A stretch of 61,539 bases of DNA from Chloroflexota bacterium. Its GTDB lineage: Bacteria; Chloroflexota; Chloroflexia; QHBQ01. This document shows, piece after piece, positions 47,140 to 59,797 of this stretch. Below the pieces are notes generated by a model, which was not told where the DNA came from, searched no databases, and saw nothing but the letters and a program-made list of their open reading frames with translations. How positions within the stretch are numbered: position 1 is the first letter of the stretch; each line of letters begins with the position of its first letter. The position numbers and the translations under genes were made by a program. Location: contig JAYUUN010000009.1 of the NCBI GenBank assembly GCA_043754535.1, positions 1 through 61,539 of the forward strand, in the 5' to 3' direction.

Positions 47140-48480
47140 CTAGTTCTTGATGAAGCCTTCGTACTGACGCATCAGCAGTTGTGCCTCAAGCTGCTTCATC
47201 GTGTCAATTGCTACACCGACGACGATGAGCAGGCTGGTGCTGGTGATCAGGTTCTGCGTGCCAGCCGAGCCAGTGGCTATTGCGCCGAGGTAAGGTAGTA
47301 CCGCGACCAGGCCGAGGAACAGCGCACCCAGTAGGGTGATGCGGAACAGCACCCGCTGGAGGTAACGGTCGGTCGCTGCACCTGGACGGACACCGGGGAT
47401 GCTACCGCCGCTCTTTTGCAGGTTTTCGGCGATCTGCTGCTGCTGGAACTGCACCAGCGTGTAGAAGAAGGCGAAGGCAACAACCATCACGAAGTAGAGA
47501 ATCTGGTACTGCAAAGTCTGGGGTGAGAAGAAGTCGCGTACCCCGGTGGCGAAGTCGCGGATGCCCTGCGATTGCGCGCCGAGGAAGAAGCCCGCGATGG
47601 TCGAGGGAAACAGCATGATCGCAATGGCAAAGATCAGCGGGATCATGCCTGCCGAGTTGACGCGCATGGGGATGAAGCTGCTCCCGCTCTGTCGGGTAAT
47701 CCGCCCACCGCGCATCATAGTGCGGGCGTAGTTGACGGGGATGCGCCGTTGCCCTTCCTGGATCAGCACGATACCGATGATGGTAGCGATGCCAATCAGG
47801 ATGAAGATGATGAAGCCGATGAAGTTGCCGACCCCAGCGGTGGAGTTGAACAACTGACCGATTTTGTTCGGTAGGCCCGCGACAATGCCACCGAAGATGA
47901 TGATGCTGACCCCCTGGCCGATGCCATATTCGGTGATCAGTTCGCCCATCCAGACAAGCAGGATAGTGCCAGCGACCATAGCGACCAGCACCGCCCAGCT
48001 AAACAGGCGGTCGGCATTGCCGTCGAGTAGGCCGAACTTGAAGTTGAGCAGGCTGGTGCTGGCACCGAGGGCTGCCCCATTGCTGAACTGGCGCAGGAGG
48101 CCGTAGGCTTCGAGGGCAGCCAGCGGTACGCTGACGTAGTGGGTGATGCGGTTGATCTGGGCGCGGCCCGACTCGCCTTCTTTCGAGAGTTCGGTCAGGC
48201 GTGGGATGATGCCGATCAGCAACTGCATCACGATGGAGGCGGTGATGTAGGGGTAAACCCCCATGGCGATCACCGAGAATTGGCTGAGAGTACCGCCAGA
48301 GAAGACGTTGAGGATGCCGAGAGCCTGGTTGCCCTCGATCACCTTCGCCAGTTCGCTGAGGTTGATACCTGGCACTGGCACGTGGGCGATGAAGCGCACG
48401 AGGATGAGAATGCCGATAGTAAACAGTATCTTGCGTCGCAAGTCGGCGATGCGGAAGGCGTTGAGCGTAGCCTGGAGCAT
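47140..48480 (-). CDS. secY: Preprotein translocase subunit SecY
   Basis: GVYPYITASI.MQLL, GMIPLIFA, IPGVRPG, TSLLIVVGV. Confidence 0.98.
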   Translation of the reverse strand: MLQATLNAFRIADLRRKILFTIGILILVRFIAHVPVPGINLSELAKVIEGNQALGILNVFSGGTLSQFSVIAMGVYPYITASIVMQLLIGIIPRLTELSKEGESGRAQINRITHYVSVPLAALEAYGLLRQFSNGAALGASTSLLNFKFGLLDGNADRLFSWAVLVAMVAGTILLVWMGELITEYGIGQGVSIIIFGGIVAGLPNKIGQLFNSTAGVGNFIGFIIFILIGIATIIGIVLIQEGQRRIPVNYARTMMRGGRITRQSGSSFIPMRVNSAGMIPLIFAIAIMLFPSTIAGFFLGAQSQGIRDFATGVRDFFSPQTLQYQILYFVMVVAFAFFYTLVQFQQQQIAENLQKSGGSIPGVRPGAATDRYLQRVLFRITLLGALFLGLVAVLPYLGAIATGSAGTQNLITSTSLLIVVGVAIDTMKQLEAQLLMRQYEGFIKN

Positions 48481-48593
48481 GGAGTGAGGGCTACCTTTCT
48501 AAGTTGACCGGGGGCGAGTTTGCGCCCCTGGCGACTGCTGGTTGCCAGATGGGGAAGCAGCGCGAGCTAGTGGCTTGCGCTGCTTCCTGCTGC

Positions 48594-50099
48594 TTACTTG
48601 CTGCTGCTGCTGCGAACGCTATCGCAACCTTCGACGATCTGATAGCTGCCATCCTGCTGGCGGGCGATGTTGTGCGCCTTGCCAGAGGTTGGGGCGGGGG
48701 CAAGCTGACCCTCGCGCAGGTAGGGATGGTCGCTGGCGACGGCATTGCTGCCCTCGTGCTTACCCCAAACCACGCTGTCGACCAGGCCGCCGCTAGCATC
48801 AAGTAGGCCCACGCCGCCCCCTTCGAGGCGCATCTGGCCGCCACCCTGTTCGCCCATGCGGGCATCCGGGGTAGCAGGGCAGTCGTAGTCGTTGCCTATC
48901 AGCAGGTAGTGACCGCCCGCCGGGATGATCGTGTCGCTGGCCCACTTGTGCAGGGTGGGGCGCACGGAGGGCTTACCACTGGCCGCCCGATAGTAGAGTT
49001 GGTAGCCATTGAGGTTAACTTCGTTGTCAGTGCCGTTGTAGAGTTCGATGAACTCGTCGTCCTTGCCGTTCGGCCCATCCACGCGGATTTGGCTGATGAA
49101 CAGGCCGCCAGTCAGCTTCGGCATCGCCGTTGCGCCGCTAGTGCTGCTCAGTTCGGCGGGGCTGGCCTGGATGAAGCTAGCCAGGTCGGGGTCGAGGTCG
49201 GCAGCCATCGTCGGCACTTCAGCCACCACAGCCGGGGCTTCTACTTCAGCCGCAGCCGTCGGGGCTTCAACAGCCGGGGCTTCTGCTTCAGCCTCAGCCG
49301 TCGGGGCTTCTACTTCAGCCACCACAGCCGGAGCTTCTACTTCAGCCGCACTCGTAGCAGTCAGGGCTTCAACAGCCGGGGTTGCAGTTACCTGCGTCTC
49401 AGCGGTGGGGGTAGGACGAGCCTTCTTCGGCTTGTCGGAGGCAGCACTCTGCTCCTTCTTGGAGCTAGCCTGCTGCTCCTTCTTGCCAGTGGCAGCCTGC
49501 TGGCCCTTCTTGCTGGTGGGTGCCGGGGTTGCCTCTTGGACGGGGGCATTGGCGGCAGCCTCAGCATCTGCTGCGGCCTTCGCTGCTGCCTCTACCGCTG
49601 CCTCCTCCCGCTTCTGGCGGCGGAGGCGGCGGTTCTCAGTATCGGCGTGTTCCAGTTCGGTAGCAGTGCCACCAGCAGCCTGGATTTTCTGCATCGCGCC
49701 CGCAGTGAAGGCGTGCGCGCTGATATTCATGGGGCGAGTCAGTTCGCCGCTGCCCAGTACCTTGAGTGGGCGATCTGCGTGCTGCGCCCAGCCCAGGTCG
49801 TGCAACAGGGTCGGGGTAATCTCGTCGGTGTCCAGTTCGCTCAGGCGATCCAGGTCCACCGTGTCATAGCGGGTAGTAAACAGACTGTTGGTGAAGCCCA
49901 CGCCCCGCTTGTAGGGCAGCGACTTGATCAGCTTGTTTTGTCCGCCTTCAAACCAGGGCTGGATATTGCCGCCAGTTCTGGCCTTCTGGCCCTTTTGACC
50001 GCGCCCCGAAGTCTTACCTCTGCCGCTGCCATCGCCGCGACCAACCCGCTTGCGCGTCTTACCTGCCCCATAAGGGGCGGTTAGCTCGTGTAGCTTCAC
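48594..50099 (-). CDS. rplO: 50S ribosomal protein L15 fused to a low-complexity linker and a lamin-tail-like domain (501 aa)
   Basis: aa 1-149 L15 (KRVGRG.GSG.GKTSGRGQKGQKAR, FEGGQ, KVLG.GEL, KI.AAGG); aa ~330-500 LFISQI..DEFIELYN...VNLNGYQL..IPAGGHYLL..L.D..G..VDSV.WG; canonical position between rpmD and secY. Confidence 0.9.
   Translation of the reverse strand: MKLHELTAPYGAGKTRKRVGRGDGSGRGKTSGRGQKGQKARTGGNIQPWFEGGQNKLIKSLPYKRGVGFTNSLFTTRYDTVDLDRLSELDTDEITPTLLHDLGWAQHADRPLKVLGSGELTRPMNISAHAFTAGAMQKIQAAGGTATELEHADTENRRLRRQKREEAAVEAAAKAAADAEAAANAPVQEATPAPTSKKGQQAATGKKEQQASSKKEQSAASDKPKKARPTPTAETQVTATPAVEALTATSAAEVEAPAVVAEVEAPTAEAEAEAPAVEAPTAAAEVEAPAVVAEVPTMAADLDPDLASFIQASPAELSSTSGATAMPKLTGGLFISQIRVDGPNGKDDEFIELYNGTDNEVNLNGYQLYYRAASGKPSVRPTLHKWASDTIIPAGGHYLLIGNDYDCPATPDARMGEQGGGQMRLEGGGVGLLDASGGLVDSVVWGKHEGSNAVASDHPYLREGQLAPAPTSGKAHNIARQQDGSYQIVEGCDSVRSSSSK
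49214..49381 (-). repeat. Tandem coding repeats (AEVEAPAVV / AEVEAPT) in the L15 linker
   Basis: Recurrent + strand units such as CAGCCGGGGCTTCTACTTCAGCC. Confidence 0.85.
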
Positions 50100-50326
50100 T
50101 GCATTGCCTCCTCAGTGCCGATCTCCTCGACATGGACGAGGTGGGCCACCGTCGCTACCATACCACGCACCATCGGAGAATCTTGCTTGACCACAGTCTG
50201 ATGAATCTTGCGGATGCCGAGGGCCACCAGGGTGCGCCGCTGGTTCTCCAGCCGCCCCGCAGAGCTACGCACCTGGGTGATCCGTAGCTGCTTGCCACTA
50301 CTCTGCTTTTCGTTATTAGCGTCCAC
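50096..50326 (-). CDS. rpmD: 50S ribosomal protein L30
   Basis: [34 protein letters not shown] after GGAGG. Confidence 0.95.
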
Positions 50327-51143
50327 GATTACCTCCACCACCACCAGCAGCACCACCAGGGCGACCGCCACGCGCACCACCAGGGCCGCCACGACCGCCG
50401 CCAGGGCCGCCACGACCGCCACCAGGGCCACCGCGACCACCAAAGCCAGTGCCAGTGCTACCAGTGCCAGTACCACCAGTGCCAGTACCGCCGCTATCTT
50501 CACCTTCGCCACGCCGACCGCCGCGACCGCCGCGACCGCCGCCACGCTGGTCATTGCGCCCGTTGCGGGGCCGCTCCAACCGCTCGTCGCCAACCGCAGG
50601 GGCAGTAGCAACCGGGGCGTTGGGGTCAACCTTGACCCGCGCTCGCCGCGCCATCTCCTCAACCGGGAGGCCACGCAGTTGCGCGATCTCGTCGGAAGTG
50701 CGGAGGGTTTGCAGGGCGTTGAGGGTAGCCCGCACCACGTTGACCGGGTTGTTGTTGCCGAGCGATTTGGTTAGCACATCCTTGATCCCAGCAGCTTCGA
50801 GGACAGCACGCACGGCACCGCCCGCGATCACGCCCGTACCAGGCGAGGCGGGGCGAAGCATCACCTTGCTTGCGCCAAAGCTGACGATCACATCGTGAGG
50901 GATCGTCGTACCGACCATTGGCACCTGGATCAGGTTCTTCTTCGCGTCCTCTACACCCTTGCGGATCGCGTCGGTCACTTCAGCCGCCTTGCCCATACCC
51001 GCGCCGACGATACCACGACCGTCGCCCACGACAATCACCGAGCTAAAGCTGAAGCGGCGACCACCCTTGACCACTTTGGAGACGCGGTTGAGTTGTACCA
51101 TACGCTCTTCCAGTTCAAGCCTGGTTGCGTCAATTCTTGCCAT
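50316..51143 (-). CDS. rpsE: 30S ribosomal protein S5 with long Gly/Arg-rich C-terminal tail (275 aa)
   Basis: [27 protein letters not shown]; tail GGRGGRGG...GTGTGGTG...GGRGGPGG. Confidence 0.97.
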
Positions 51144-55448: not shown

Positions 55449-55970
55449 TTAGGCGTTGTCCTCGCTTGTCCCTTCAGCATCCTCGCTGCCAGGGAGCGGT
55501 GGGCGGCCAGTAGCCCGCTTGGTACCCATGAAGCGGGGATCAAAGGGGGTATCATTACCTGACTCGACGCGGCTAACGATCTTGGTCTTGATCGGCAGCT
55601 TGTGACCAGCCAGCCGCATCGCCTCGCGCGCCTCAACCTCTGGCACGCCCGCGATCTCAAAGAGGATGCGCCCCTCCTTGACCACGGCCACCCAGTGGTC
55701 GGGTGCGCCCTTGCCTGAACCCATGCGGGTCTCGGCGGGTTTGGCGGTCATCGGCTTGTCAGGGAAGATACGAATCCAGACCTTACCGCCACGCTTGGTG
55801 TAGCCGACGATGGCGCGGCGGGCAGCCTCGATCTGGCGACCGTCCATCCAGATCGTCTGCAAGGCTTGCAGGCCGAACTCACCGAAGGCCACCGTGGTGC
55901 CGCTGTAAGCACGGCCACGCGACTCGCCGCGATGCGTCTTGCGGAACTTGGTGCGCTTGGGCATCAACAT
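55449..55970 (-). CDS. rplP: 50S ribosomal protein L16 with C-terminal extension
   Basis: [33 protein letters not shown]. Confidence 0.98.
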
Positions 55971-58915: not shown

Positions 58916-59797
58916 CTAGGCACCCTTCTGCGTCGCGTCTGCGTCGTCTTCGTCAATCATCTGGCGGCTGCTTTCGCTGACCGCCTCGGCTACGCCACGT
59001 GGGGTGAGTGGGTCAAGCATCTCAGCGGTGCTGGTGCTGACCGCTTCGGCCAGGCCGAGGCTGTGGTCGGTGAGTGGTAGGTCGACGGTAGTGGTTGGCA
59101 GGTCGCTGCTTGGCGTTCGAACCTTCAGTTCGTCCTTCGCCGCATCGTCGGCAAAGGCACCCATACCATCGCCGAGGATGCTGCCGATCAGTTCGAGCGA
59201 CTCCGGGGTGAGCAGCAGGTACTCGTACTTGAGCATATCCACCAGGCTAAGGTACTGGGCGAAGGCAAGTTCGCACTGTTCGATATTGTGAGCAGCGCGG
59301 TAAACGTTCTCCTCGCGGCTAGCCAGCATGATCAGGGCGCGACCCTTGCCCTGGGTGAGGTTGAGCTTGGCAAGCAGAGTGATCATCGTCTTGGTACGTG
59401 GCTCAATGTTGTGCAGACCCTCGATCAGGATGATCTGACCGTCGGCTGCCTTGATCGAAAGGACGCTGCGGGCGGCCAGACGGCGCATCTTACGCGGCAA
59501 ATCCTTCTCATAACTACGCGGATGTGGGCCAAAGACCACTGCGCCACCACGCCACTGGGGGGAGCGGTTGCTACCCTGGCGGGCGCGGCCCGTACCCTTC
59601 TGGCGGTATGGCTTGCGGCCACCGCCACGCACGGCAGTGCGGTCTTTGGTGCTGTGGGTACCCTGGCGGGCATTGGCCTGCTGGCGCACAACCGCCTGAT
59701 GGACGACGGCAAGGTTCGGCTCAATGCCGAAGATGTAGTCGTTCAGTTCCAGGGTGCGGCTGACTTCACCGTTCAGGTTGTAAACTTGCACTTGCAT
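58916..59797 (-). CDS. rplD: 50S ribosomal protein L4 with acidic C-terminal extension (293 aa)
   Basis: [36 protein letters not shown]. Confidence 0.97.

Follow-up and report, generated by a model that had tools for sequence, protein, structure and literature searches.

The rplO gene in the 61,539-nt stretch of Chloroflexota DNA that we analyzed (the window) encodes a protein of 501 residues in which a canonical ribosomal protein uL15 is followed by a low-complexity linker of ~180 residues and a lamin tail domain (LTD). Taken as a whole, these features are best explained, with somewhat better than even probability in our judgment, by a fused ribosomal protein that serves as a ribosome-tethered binding module. 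To our knowledge, the acquisition of a whole folded domain by a core ribosomal protein is rare in free-living bacteria, and lineage-specific changes to these proteins are mostly short or disordered tails. The protein described here appears to be an essential-class ribosomal protein bearing an Ig-like domain that was recruited from a secreted nuclease and is held on a leash of variable length.

Gene Order, Copy Number and Integrity of the Assembly

A sequence-only reading of the window had proposed a single uninterrupted frame of 501 codons at the canonical rplO position, and such a frame is indeed found there, in the spc operon between rpmD and secY (Table 1), the same slot that rplO occupies canonically in bacteria. 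The second species of the genus has the same gene order. The predicted product has a mass of 52.4 kDa and a pI of 5.6. The stop codon of rpmD and the start codon of rplO share the sequence GTGA, an overlap that suggests translational coupling of rplO to rpmD, and a spacer of 113 nt separates the fusion gene from secY. When we looked for a second rplO, TIGR01071 (rplO_bact) had one match in the whole 3.87-Mb assembly, a metagenome-assembled genome of 132 contigs that is 88.86% complete; as the sole copy found at this completeness, the fused gene is, judging from its sequence and position, the working rplO of the organism. The sister genus has an unfused rplO, likewise followed by secY. Since the rplO-secY order is universal as far as we know, the adjacency of secY is uninformative with regard to a link with the translocon.

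Table 1. Features of the fused rplO gene and its neighbors (positions in the window)
Feature	Position	Strand	Evidence or remarks
Fused rplO (uL15-linker-LTD)	48594..50099	-	501 codons + stop, GTG start; ORF list, sequence
rpmD (uL30)	50096..50326	-	TGA stop overlaps rplO GTG start; start at 50326 is our reading
secY	47140..48480	-	Usual rplO neighbor downstream; PF00344 at 320.9 bits
Canonical uL15 core, aa 1-149	49653..50099	-	TIGR01071, PF00828, alignment with B. subtilis uL15, dN/dS 0
Arg/Glu/Ala-rich segment, aa 150-186	49542..49652	-	Sequence; tail of sister genus
Basic K/Q-rich repeats (KKGQQAATG / KKEQQASS), aa 187-232	49404..49541	-	Net charge +6
Acidic AEVEAP(A/T)V repeats, aa 233-300	49200..49403	-	Net charge -13; TRF, alignment
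Connector, aa 301-329	49113..49199	-	Low model confidence
LTD beta-sandwich, aa 330-490	48630..49112	-	PF00932, AlphaFold2, Foldseek, dN/dS
C-terminal tail GCDSVRSSSSK + stop	48594..48629	-	Alignment

The repeats of the linker break short-read contigs in two of the four metagenome runs that we compared, as might be expected if an assembly or sequencing artefact had joined rplO to an unrelated LTD gene. However, the overlapping pieces contain no alternative joint, and the whole ORF lies within single contigs in two runs, one of them a possible source run and the other an independent run from another study. Moreover, seven versions of the protein (501, 502, 511, and 530 aa), listed under five source labels, all keep the reading frame and vary in length only in the linker, and they include a fusion of 530 aa from the second species of the genus with 92-95% identity. 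Misassembly at the linker repeats, which had been named as a possible refutation, is thus excluded, and we consider an artefact of any such kind to be effectively refuted.

Domain Architecture of the Fused uL15

The complete L15 that had been assigned to the first 149 residues was borne out by TIGR01071, which matched aa 2-146 with 131.6 bits (cut-off 77.95; model positions 1-143 of 144), and by an end-to-end alignment with uL15 of B. subtilis (PDB 3j3v chain L), residues 1-144 of 146 of which align with the first 149 of the fusion (E 3.8e-34). PF00828 gave 54.4 bits on the fusion protein, compared to a cut-off of 21.5. Solved bacterial uL15 chains are listed with ~131-161 residues, whereas the fused protein has 501 and ends in a folded domain.

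Beyond the core, the sequence-only reading had described a charged helix followed by KKxQQA repeats and acidic AEVEAP repeats. Both sets of repeats are present (aa 187-232 and 233-300). The description of the helix held with respect to its charge, as aa 150-186 are rich in Arg, Glu and Ala; its helicity is probable from composition only. The start of this segment (TELEH..RR.RR) is common to the short uL15 tail of the sister genus. The acidic repeats, in which Tandem Repeats Finder reported 2 copies with a period of 42 nt at 49228-49310, differ in number between the two species, with 29 additional residues in the 530-aa form. The 511-aa variants have one extra 9-residue K/Q-rich unit, and the connector is polymorphic for a 3-nt insertion (one Ala) behind position 49153. 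The composition of the linker suggests that it may be disordered and act as a flexible tether.

The globular C-terminal domain that had been recognized by its motifs is an LTD, as PF00932 matched aa 330-446 with 56.6 bits (cut-off 34.3; model positions 5-108 of 109) and a six-frame profile search gave 60.1 bits. Structure prediction, which had been suggested as a check, yielded a confident lamin Ig fold: the AlphaFold2 model of the LTD (pLDDT 74.6, pTM 0.78) has strands up to aa 489, and the first 16 ranks of a Foldseek comparison were all lamin Ig folds (lamin A/C, B1, and B2; best E 4.8e-6), with the same top matches for an earlier, weaker model. The fold is the same as that of the Ig-like tail of animal nuclear lamins (PDB 3jt0, 3umn, and 1ifr), with TM-scores of up to 0.72 normalised to the target; the fusion protein differs from these lamins in sharing only 12-21% sequence identity with them, in having no coiled-coil rod, and in its cellular context. 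A sequence search of solved structures with the LTD part gave no matches at E ≤ 1, the lamins being found by fold comparison only, and the ESM Atlas returned only generic LTD clusters. PF00828 and PF00932 were the only domains found in the fusion protein, and there was no hydrolase domain (EEP nuclease or phosphoesterase).

Behind its first strand the fusion LTD has the core LTD motif, E-[FYW]-[IV]-E-[LI]-x-N; E57, L58, and N60 do not vary across the 14 rows of one LTD alignment, nor do E27 and N30 across the 18 rows of a larger one. The motif D-T-D-N-N-x-x-D-F, or in its more general form D-T-[DNG]-x-N-x-x-D-F, ends 15 of the 16 LTD rows that are not linked to uL15, and both uL15 rows have GCDSVRSSSSK in its place, which suggests that the ligand of the ancestral LTD may no longer be bound. 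The domain is acidic (net charge -8, pI 5.0), and this charge speaks against simple electrostatic binding of nucleic acids.

Distribution of the Fusion and Origin of the LTD

The fusion occurs in two species, both from the same genus of uncultured Chloroflexia, to which it is restricted. It was absent from the sister genus, from 34 relatives with a uL15 match, and from 301 genomes of the class, and none was found elsewhere among 5.8 billion protein clusters or 1.84 billion representatives. Both profiles exceed their cut-offs in the fusion protein, and in these searches the architecture was not found outside the genus. Our literature search likewise gave no description of a uL15-LTD fusion, in line with the sequence-only reading, which knew of none. 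Long uL15 frames in other relatives proved not to be fusions, as a stop lies within those of G034 (648 aa) and G039 (280 aa), and that of G019 (292 aa) is an upstream extension introduced by ORF calling.

In the relatives, uL15 tails are 20-50 residues long and, in the closest ones, basic. Database searches returned 97 clusters of long uL15 (275-552 aa); none has an LTD, and according to a precomputed Pfam column only three have a further domain, either SecY or L30. Most of the ten clusters that we inspected have long acidic or Ala/Pro-rich tails, which suggests that the C-terminus of uL15 tolerates extensions. Such long-tailed uL15 proteins, from metagenomic Chloroflexota-like and other lineages, have the same type of Ala/Glu/Pro/Lys-rich tail as the fused protein, sometimes with near-identical AEAEAP-type repeats, and differ from it in lacking the LTD.

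The closest sequence relatives of the fusion LTD are the N-terminal LTDs of ExeM-like nucleases, Chloroflexia proteins of ~1056 aa, with 35-41% identity. In a phylogenetic tree the uL15-linked LTD nests with these nuclease LTDs with a support of 94/99, and its branch has a length of 2.4 changes per column. The LTDs of ExeM/NucH-type nucleases, including Shewanella ExeM (PMC6085458), share with it the motifs [IV]S[QE]..., DEF[IV]E[LI].N, IPAGG.YL, and IDSVG.G. They are located behind a signal peptide and ahead of nuclease domains in extracellular proteins, whereas the fusion LTD is located behind a ribosomal protein and would be cytoplasmic; in comparison with them, it also lacks D-T-D-N-N-x-x-D-F, carries an insertion of 6-8 residues, and is set apart by a very long branch. 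The statement of the sequence-only reading that bacterial LTDs occur mostly in secreted or membrane-associated hydrolases agrees with PMC6085458, and this genome's other three LTD proteins conform to it as well. The other LTD proteins examined were all extracytoplasmic, and LTD paralogues and relatives begin with hydrophobic leader segments, which on visual inspection look like signal peptides or anchors. The fusion protein, as had been noted, has neither a signal peptide nor an upstream anchor, its N-terminus being uL15 itself.

We rejected this genome's own LTD genes as donors, since their identity to the fusion LTD is only 18-25%. A separate LTD gene between rplO and secY was not found in the sister genus, and the LTD matches of relatives are in other ORFs of 425-1868 aa. 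When the 3′ end of rplO and the rplO-secY spacer were compared between the sister genus and this genus, no DNA homology was found beyond the uL15 core; the matches comprised a stretch of 52 nt within the core and one of 14 nt where secY begins.

A probable course of events is that a short basic uL15 tail like that of the relatives grew by the addition of a segment rich in Ala and Glu and of two sets of repeats, the K/Q-rich and the acidic AEVEAP ones, and that the lengthened tail was then capped with the LTD beta-sandwich, for a total C-terminal addition of 350 residues. The source of the LTD would be the secreted ExeM-like nucleases of the same class, whose N-terminal LTD was captured and then diverged strongly. 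Such a series, from disordered tail through repeat expansion to domain capture, would be a concrete example of how domains can accrete on the ribosome.

Selection on the Fused Gene and the Nature of Its Product

Between the two species of the genus, dN/dS was 0 for uL15 (no non-synonymous and 17 synonymous changes), 0.43 for the linker, and 0.057 and 0.063 for the LTD (aa 330-446 and 447-501, respectively), with dS similar along the whole gene (0.12-0.17); the depth of this comparison is small, as it involves two species at dS ~0.15 and 17.5 synonymous vs 4.5 non-synonymous changes over 182 codons. The difference between LTD and linker indicates that the LTD is kept by strong purifying selection and is functional. 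The restriction of the architecture to one genus would be consistent with a tolerated, functionless passenger, LTD-coding DNA that the 3′ end of rplO picked up recently by accident, yet we regard this as very improbable, given that dN/dS is roughly 0.06 in the LTD and 0.43 in the adjoining linker at equal dS, that the domain still folds confidently as an LTD in AlphaFold2, and that a new function would account for a branch that is long after the capture and constrained thereafter.

Alternatively, one gene may give rise to two products, a uL15 of normal size on the ribosome and a free cytoplasmic LTD, either by cleavage of the linker or by initiation at an internal LTD start, in which case rplO would do no more for the LTD than secure strong expression coupled to growth. 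A long, low-complexity and fast-evolving linker would be accessible to proteases, and there are in-frame ATG codons at positions 298 and 326. However, none of the eight in-frame ATG or GTG codons between codons 150 and 340, these two included, is preceded by a Shine-Dalgarno-like match of at least 4 nt, as the sequence-only reading had judged when it saw no obvious internal ribosome binding site. Promoter-like sites were not found in 48300-50400 either, and the separate translation of the LTD that had been raised as a possible refutation thus has no start signal or promoter-like site in its favor. No dedicated protease site can be recognized in the linker, and the frame has been kept through all linker length changes in the seven sequences, although cleavage would equally require this. 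We consider a two-product gene unlikely. Rather, we infer that the gene is read as one polypeptide of 52 kDa, translationally coupled to rpmD, that enters the ribosome in this form and carries on a flexible tether a domain that binds a target.

Possible Function of a Tethered LTD

In the explanation that we favor, the uL15 core would assemble into the 50S subunit as usual, and the LTD would swing on its flexible tether of ~180 residues at the solvent face, where we take the C-terminus of uL15 to be placed; variation in tether length would be tolerated. A tethered module is thus plausibly displayed on every large ribosomal subunit, and the LTD would act as a binding module that keeps a partner near the ribosome or, conversely, keeps ribosomes near a cellular structure. 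Candidates for the partner are proteins, polyanionic polymers, and components associated with the envelope or nucleoid. We know of no bacterial LTD with a demonstrated ligand. Bacterial LTDs have been proposed to be targeting or binding modules, and deletion of the LTD lowered ExeM activity in vitro and caused a partial defect in ShfP (PMC6085458 and PMC11188070). If the fused protein is in the ribosome as encoded, it would be a natural experiment in ribosome decoration, in which the module could control the location or the cargo of ribosomes, and the bacterial LTD, functionless by annotation, would gain a tractable cytoplasmic context for ligand finding.

A more specific form of this explanation, to which we assign a low probability, is that the LTD acts as an anchor at the end of a long leash, so that all ribosomes of these filamentous Chloroflexia are attached to a fixed structure of the cell, be it the nucleoid, the cytoplasmic membrane, or envelope machinery. 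The sequence-only reading had likewise proposed anchoring, to membrane, translocon or a scaffold, which our results do not specifically favor. If ribosomes are anchored, a free-living bacterium would have permanently localised ribosomes, like mitoribosomes tied to the inner membrane, and this would be the first captured extracellular adhesion or targeting module to be re-used intracellularly on the ribosome. The mitoribosomal membrane tethers mL45/Mba1 would be functional analogues if the LTD anchors ribosomes to the membrane; they are, however, unrelated proteins, and are sited at the tunnel exit.

Self-association of LTDs could also pair or cluster ribosomes, which might serve, for instance, to store them where it is cold and nutrients are scarce. 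The metagenome runs carrying this DNA are labelled sediment, glacier and freshwater, and lamin Ig-like domains can dimerise via beta-strands according to the title of PDB 7crg, one of the fold matches, but no oligomerisation interface is indicated in the sequence, and we find such a ribosome-ribosome linker rather improbable. Slightly less doubtful is the possibility that the fusion enters ribosomes while the selected function of the LTD is extraribosomal, such as regulation or quality control of assembly by a free pool. E. coli tolerates the loss of L15, which would leave the protein some freedom. Extraribosomal roles are common among bacterial ribosomal proteins (PMC10931766). Against this, the locus indicates no regulatory target, and the uL15 core is the most constrained part of the only copy found.

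For the tethered binding module that we prefer, bL12 (L7/L12) offers a parallel in principle only, as it too is a folded module that captures partners from a flexible Ala/Pro/Glu-rich linker on the 50S subunit. It differs in being a universal protein that is unrelated in sequence and fold, with a much shorter hinge, and in recruiting translation GTPases.

Architecture and Operon Context of the Fusion Gene

A single 501-codon ORF occupies 48594..50099 on the minus strand. The ORF listing of the window and the profile matches place it within a standard spc/alpha ribosomal operon, in the order uL6, uL18, uS5, uL30, uL15-LTD, secY, adk, map, infA, uS13, uS11, uS4, rpoA and bL17. It begins with a GTG that shares bases with the TGA stop of rpmD (GTGA), and 113 nt separate its own stop from the start of secY. 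Residues 2-146 match the rplO equivalog TIGR01071 of NCBIfam (131.6 bits vs. a cut-off of 77.95), and the uL15 part aligns end to end with the solved B. subtilis uL15. The Pfam lamin tail domain (LTD) profile, PF00932, covers residues 330-446 and exceeds its gathering score (56.6 vs. 34.3 bits). All of the elements described by the sequence-only reading (the ORF, uL15, the charged segment, both repeat types and the LTD) were found where it had placed them, and the fusion gene is confirmed.

Features of the fusion gene and of other ribosomal protein tails in the window, with Nei-Gojobori estimates against the second species
Feature	Location	Strand	Characteristics	Synonymous; non-synonymous changes	dS	dN/dS
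uL15 core				17; 0	0.17	0
Arg/Glu/Ala-rich segment	aa 150-186	-	between uL15 and LTD
KKxQQ repeats	aa 187-232	-	basic, net charge +6
AEVEAP repeats	aa 233-300	-	acidic, net charge -13; 42-nt period at 49228-49310
Linker	aa 150-300			16.5; 21.5	0.16	0.43
Short connector	aa 301-329	-	between AEVEAP repeats and LTD
LTD	aa 330-446			12.5; 2.5	0.17	0.057
C-terminal stretch	aa 447-501			4; 1	0.12	0.063
uS5 tail	50319-50672	-	~110 residues past Pfam C-domain; RGG / GGRGGPGG repeats
uL16 (173 aa) tail	55452-55574	-	~40 residues past Pfam domain; acidic, low-complexity
uL4 (293 aa) tail	58919-59185	-	~85 residues past Pfam domain; acidic, low-complexity

The lack of an obvious internal RBS, noted earlier, was borne out: of the eight ATG/GTG codons that lie in frame from codon 150 to codon 340, not one is preceded by an SD-like match of at least 4 nt. 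No sigma-70-like site was found in 48300-50400, and the three terminator-like sites in this interval (1.8 expected) all lie on the opposite strand or within secY. Cleavage of the fusion, or a separate LTD product, appears improbable to us.

Assembly Integrity and Copy Number

The second species of the genus, the only other one available for comparison, also carries the fusion gene in the order rpsE-rpmD-rplO-secY. Its product has 530 aa, with identities of 95% to query residues 1-293 and 92% to residues 251-501. The architecture is represented in the protein collection by seven sequences in two clusters, with lengths of 501, 502 (n = 3), 511 (n = 2) and 530 aa and source labels of NCBI, Logan, JGI/IMG, ENA and GEM. 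When aligned, these differ only by a few substitutions and by in-frame linker events, namely one KKGQQAATG unit more, one Ala more, and 29 residues more of AEVEAP-type repeats. We also compared contigs from four public metagenome runs (X1, X5, X7, and X10) with 48400-50400. The whole interval is spanned by one contig in X1, a possible source, and by one in X7, from another study, the latter departing from the window by two substitutions and by an inserted CGG behind 49153. The X5 and X10 contigs break off within the repeats and their pieces overlap; over the interval these contigs gave no sign of a different joint or a joined form. Given the second species, the seven in-frame proteins and the contigs spanning the ORF, the joint is upheld against the suspicion of misassembly at the repeats, which is excluded for practical purposes. 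We give almost no credence to an artefact.

The linker is polymorphic in frame within populations: the 511-aa variants have an extra 27-nt KKGQQAATG unit at 49500-49530 (minus strand), and the CGG (Ala) insertion at 49153 (minus strand) occurs in frame, at the population level, in three independent runs.

A search for a second rplO, which the sequence-only reading had advised, returned the fusion gene as the one TIGR01071 match in the whole assembly (3.87 Mb in 132 contigs); as this assembly is 88.86% complete, another copy could lie on the missing DNA.

Distribution of the Fusion

Among 41 genomes from the order and its neighbors, 37 gave some match. Apart from the two genomes with the fusion, 34 relatives had a uL15 match, in no case past query residue 236, a conclusion that holds without the four unpublished genomes among them (G007, G012, G015, and G034). 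LTD-like matches in relatives sit in separate ORFs of 425-1868 aa. In the sister genus, uL15 has 194 aa, of which ~45 form a basic tail, and only a spacer, not an LTD gene, separates rplO from secY. A word-indexed search of 5.8 billion clusters, covering 275-877 aa, found PF00828 together with PF00932 in two of 101 matches, both from this genus, the other matches being 97 long uL15 forms that lack an LTD, plus two LTD-only proteins. In a HMMER scan of 1.84 billion representatives, both domains were matched only by the fusion cluster among the best 150, which reach down to ~100 bits (a very divergent fusion could score below this); the others were 144 uL15 proteins and five multi-LTD proteins. 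When the LTD part was searched against 185,579 species genomes, the second species was the sole match apart from a weak one of 34 residues. A literature search for uL15, or any ribosomal protein, linked with an LTD found none, and the joint mentions that were examined proved coincidental. As far as these searches reach, the architecture is unique to one genus and undescribed, in keeping with the initial impression that no such fusion had been reported.

Three database ORFs join uL15 to SecY (P0013 and P0072, PF00828+PF00344) or uL30 to uL15 (P0039, PF00828+PF00327), and may be true fusions or missed stops. In P0218, a uL15 homolog of 313 aa, the C-terminal globular half is present in three tandem copies (three matched stretches).

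Fold and Proposed Origin of the LTD

The domain was modeled with AlphaFold2 from 18 aligned sequences covering the LTD only; this model (mean pLDDT 74.6, pTM 0.78) has beta strands at residues 333-489. Foldseek ranks 1-16 were, without exception, Ig-like tail domains of lamins A/C, B1, and B2 (best E 4.8e-6; TM-score up to 0.72, normalized to the target), with which the LTD is thus predicted to share its fold; a poorer first model had the identical outcome. Structure prediction therefore bears out the lamin tail identity previously proposed from motifs.

Information on bacterial LTDs is sparse. According to two reports that both cite Mans et al. (2004), these domains occur mostly in secreted or membrane-associated hydrolases, and LTD deletion makes ExeM slower in vitro and causes a partial defect in ShfP (PMC6085458, PMC11188070). 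This agrees with the three other LTD proteins of the genome, whose leader segments, read by eye, are probably signal peptides or membrane anchors. These are 18-25% identical to the uL15-LTD domain, and one is an ExeM-like nuclease whose C-terminal part is of the EEP type. In an LTD protein of this genome at locus L005 (contig C32, ORF 502-2403; 633 aa), a cytoplasmic N-terminal domain is followed by a hydrophobic segment, the LTD and C-terminal membrane helices, and the protein is putatively membrane-embedded.

LTD matches at E <= 1e-8 were found in 18 of 301 genomes of the class. Besides the two fusion genes, the closest (35-41% identity) are N-terminal LTDs of ~1056-aa secreted nucleases, whereas in the fusion the LTD is C-terminal on uL15. 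Maximum-likelihood analysis groups the two uL15 LTDs with seven such nuclease LTDs, at an ultrafast bootstrap of 94 and SH-aLRT of 99, which is below the star threshold of the tree program; the uL15-LTD branch is 2.4 changes per column long, and long-branch effects are flagged for this tree. In the alignment of 18 LTDs, the uL15 LTDs keep all core motifs and have an insertion of 6-8 residues, but have lost the terminal D-T-D-N-N-x-x-D-F motif, which is retained in 15 of the 16 rows from other proteins. The domain is acidic (net charge -8, pI 5.0) and is distant in sequence from all other LTDs examined. Our reading is that it was captured from a secreted nuclease-type gene, remodeled fast, and held constant since. 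As its surface is acidic and the end motif is lost, simple retention of the ancestral LTD ligand would seem disfavored.

Constraint and Possible Function

The dN/dS pattern across regions, taken from a codon alignment at a depth of two species, indicates that the LTD is constrained to the degree usual for a functional protein. The tether can vary in both sequence and length, never in frame. The architecture is genuine and under selection, and we consider it very unlikely that the LTD is a neutral passenger.

The domain layout, together with the pattern of selection, leads us to propose a tethered binding module. With the uL15 core seated in the 50S, a leash of ~180 residues, with an estimated contour length of tens of nanometers, would allow the LTD to sweep the surroundings of the ribosome and bind a partner. 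That the product is one polypeptide, resides on the ribosome and has a binding function seems to us reasonably probable; our confidence in any particular target is far lower. That the LTD serves in anchoring, as the sequence-only reading had suggested, is a possibility to which we give a low probability, and the adjacency of secY is no evidence for this. We regard an extraribosomal role of the fusion as unlikely, and clustering of ribosomes by LTD self-association as slightly less likely still.

Tails on Ribosomal Proteins

Long uL15 proteins of 275-552 aa form at least 97 clusters (P0003-P0099). Among ten that were examined, most tails are of low complexity and either acidic and rich in Ala/Glu/Pro or mixed in charge; AEAEAP-type repeats occur in some. 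Long uL15 tails look like a widespread class of ribosomal protein tail. One of these proteins is labeled Candidatus Limnocylindrales. In the window, uL4, uL16, and uS5 also extend past their Pfam domains (see table), and such tails look like a lineage habit. Given how common long uL15 tails are, and these further tails, the uL15 tether is an exaggerated form of that habit, and the folded cap is the new element; the fusion is a case of a core ribosomal protein being extended in one lineage, here by a whole domain. The uS5 tail, whose end is overlapped by the L30 gene start, resembles eukaryotic RGG boxes, and similar uS5 tails are also present in four other genomes compared (G001, G004, G019, and G039).
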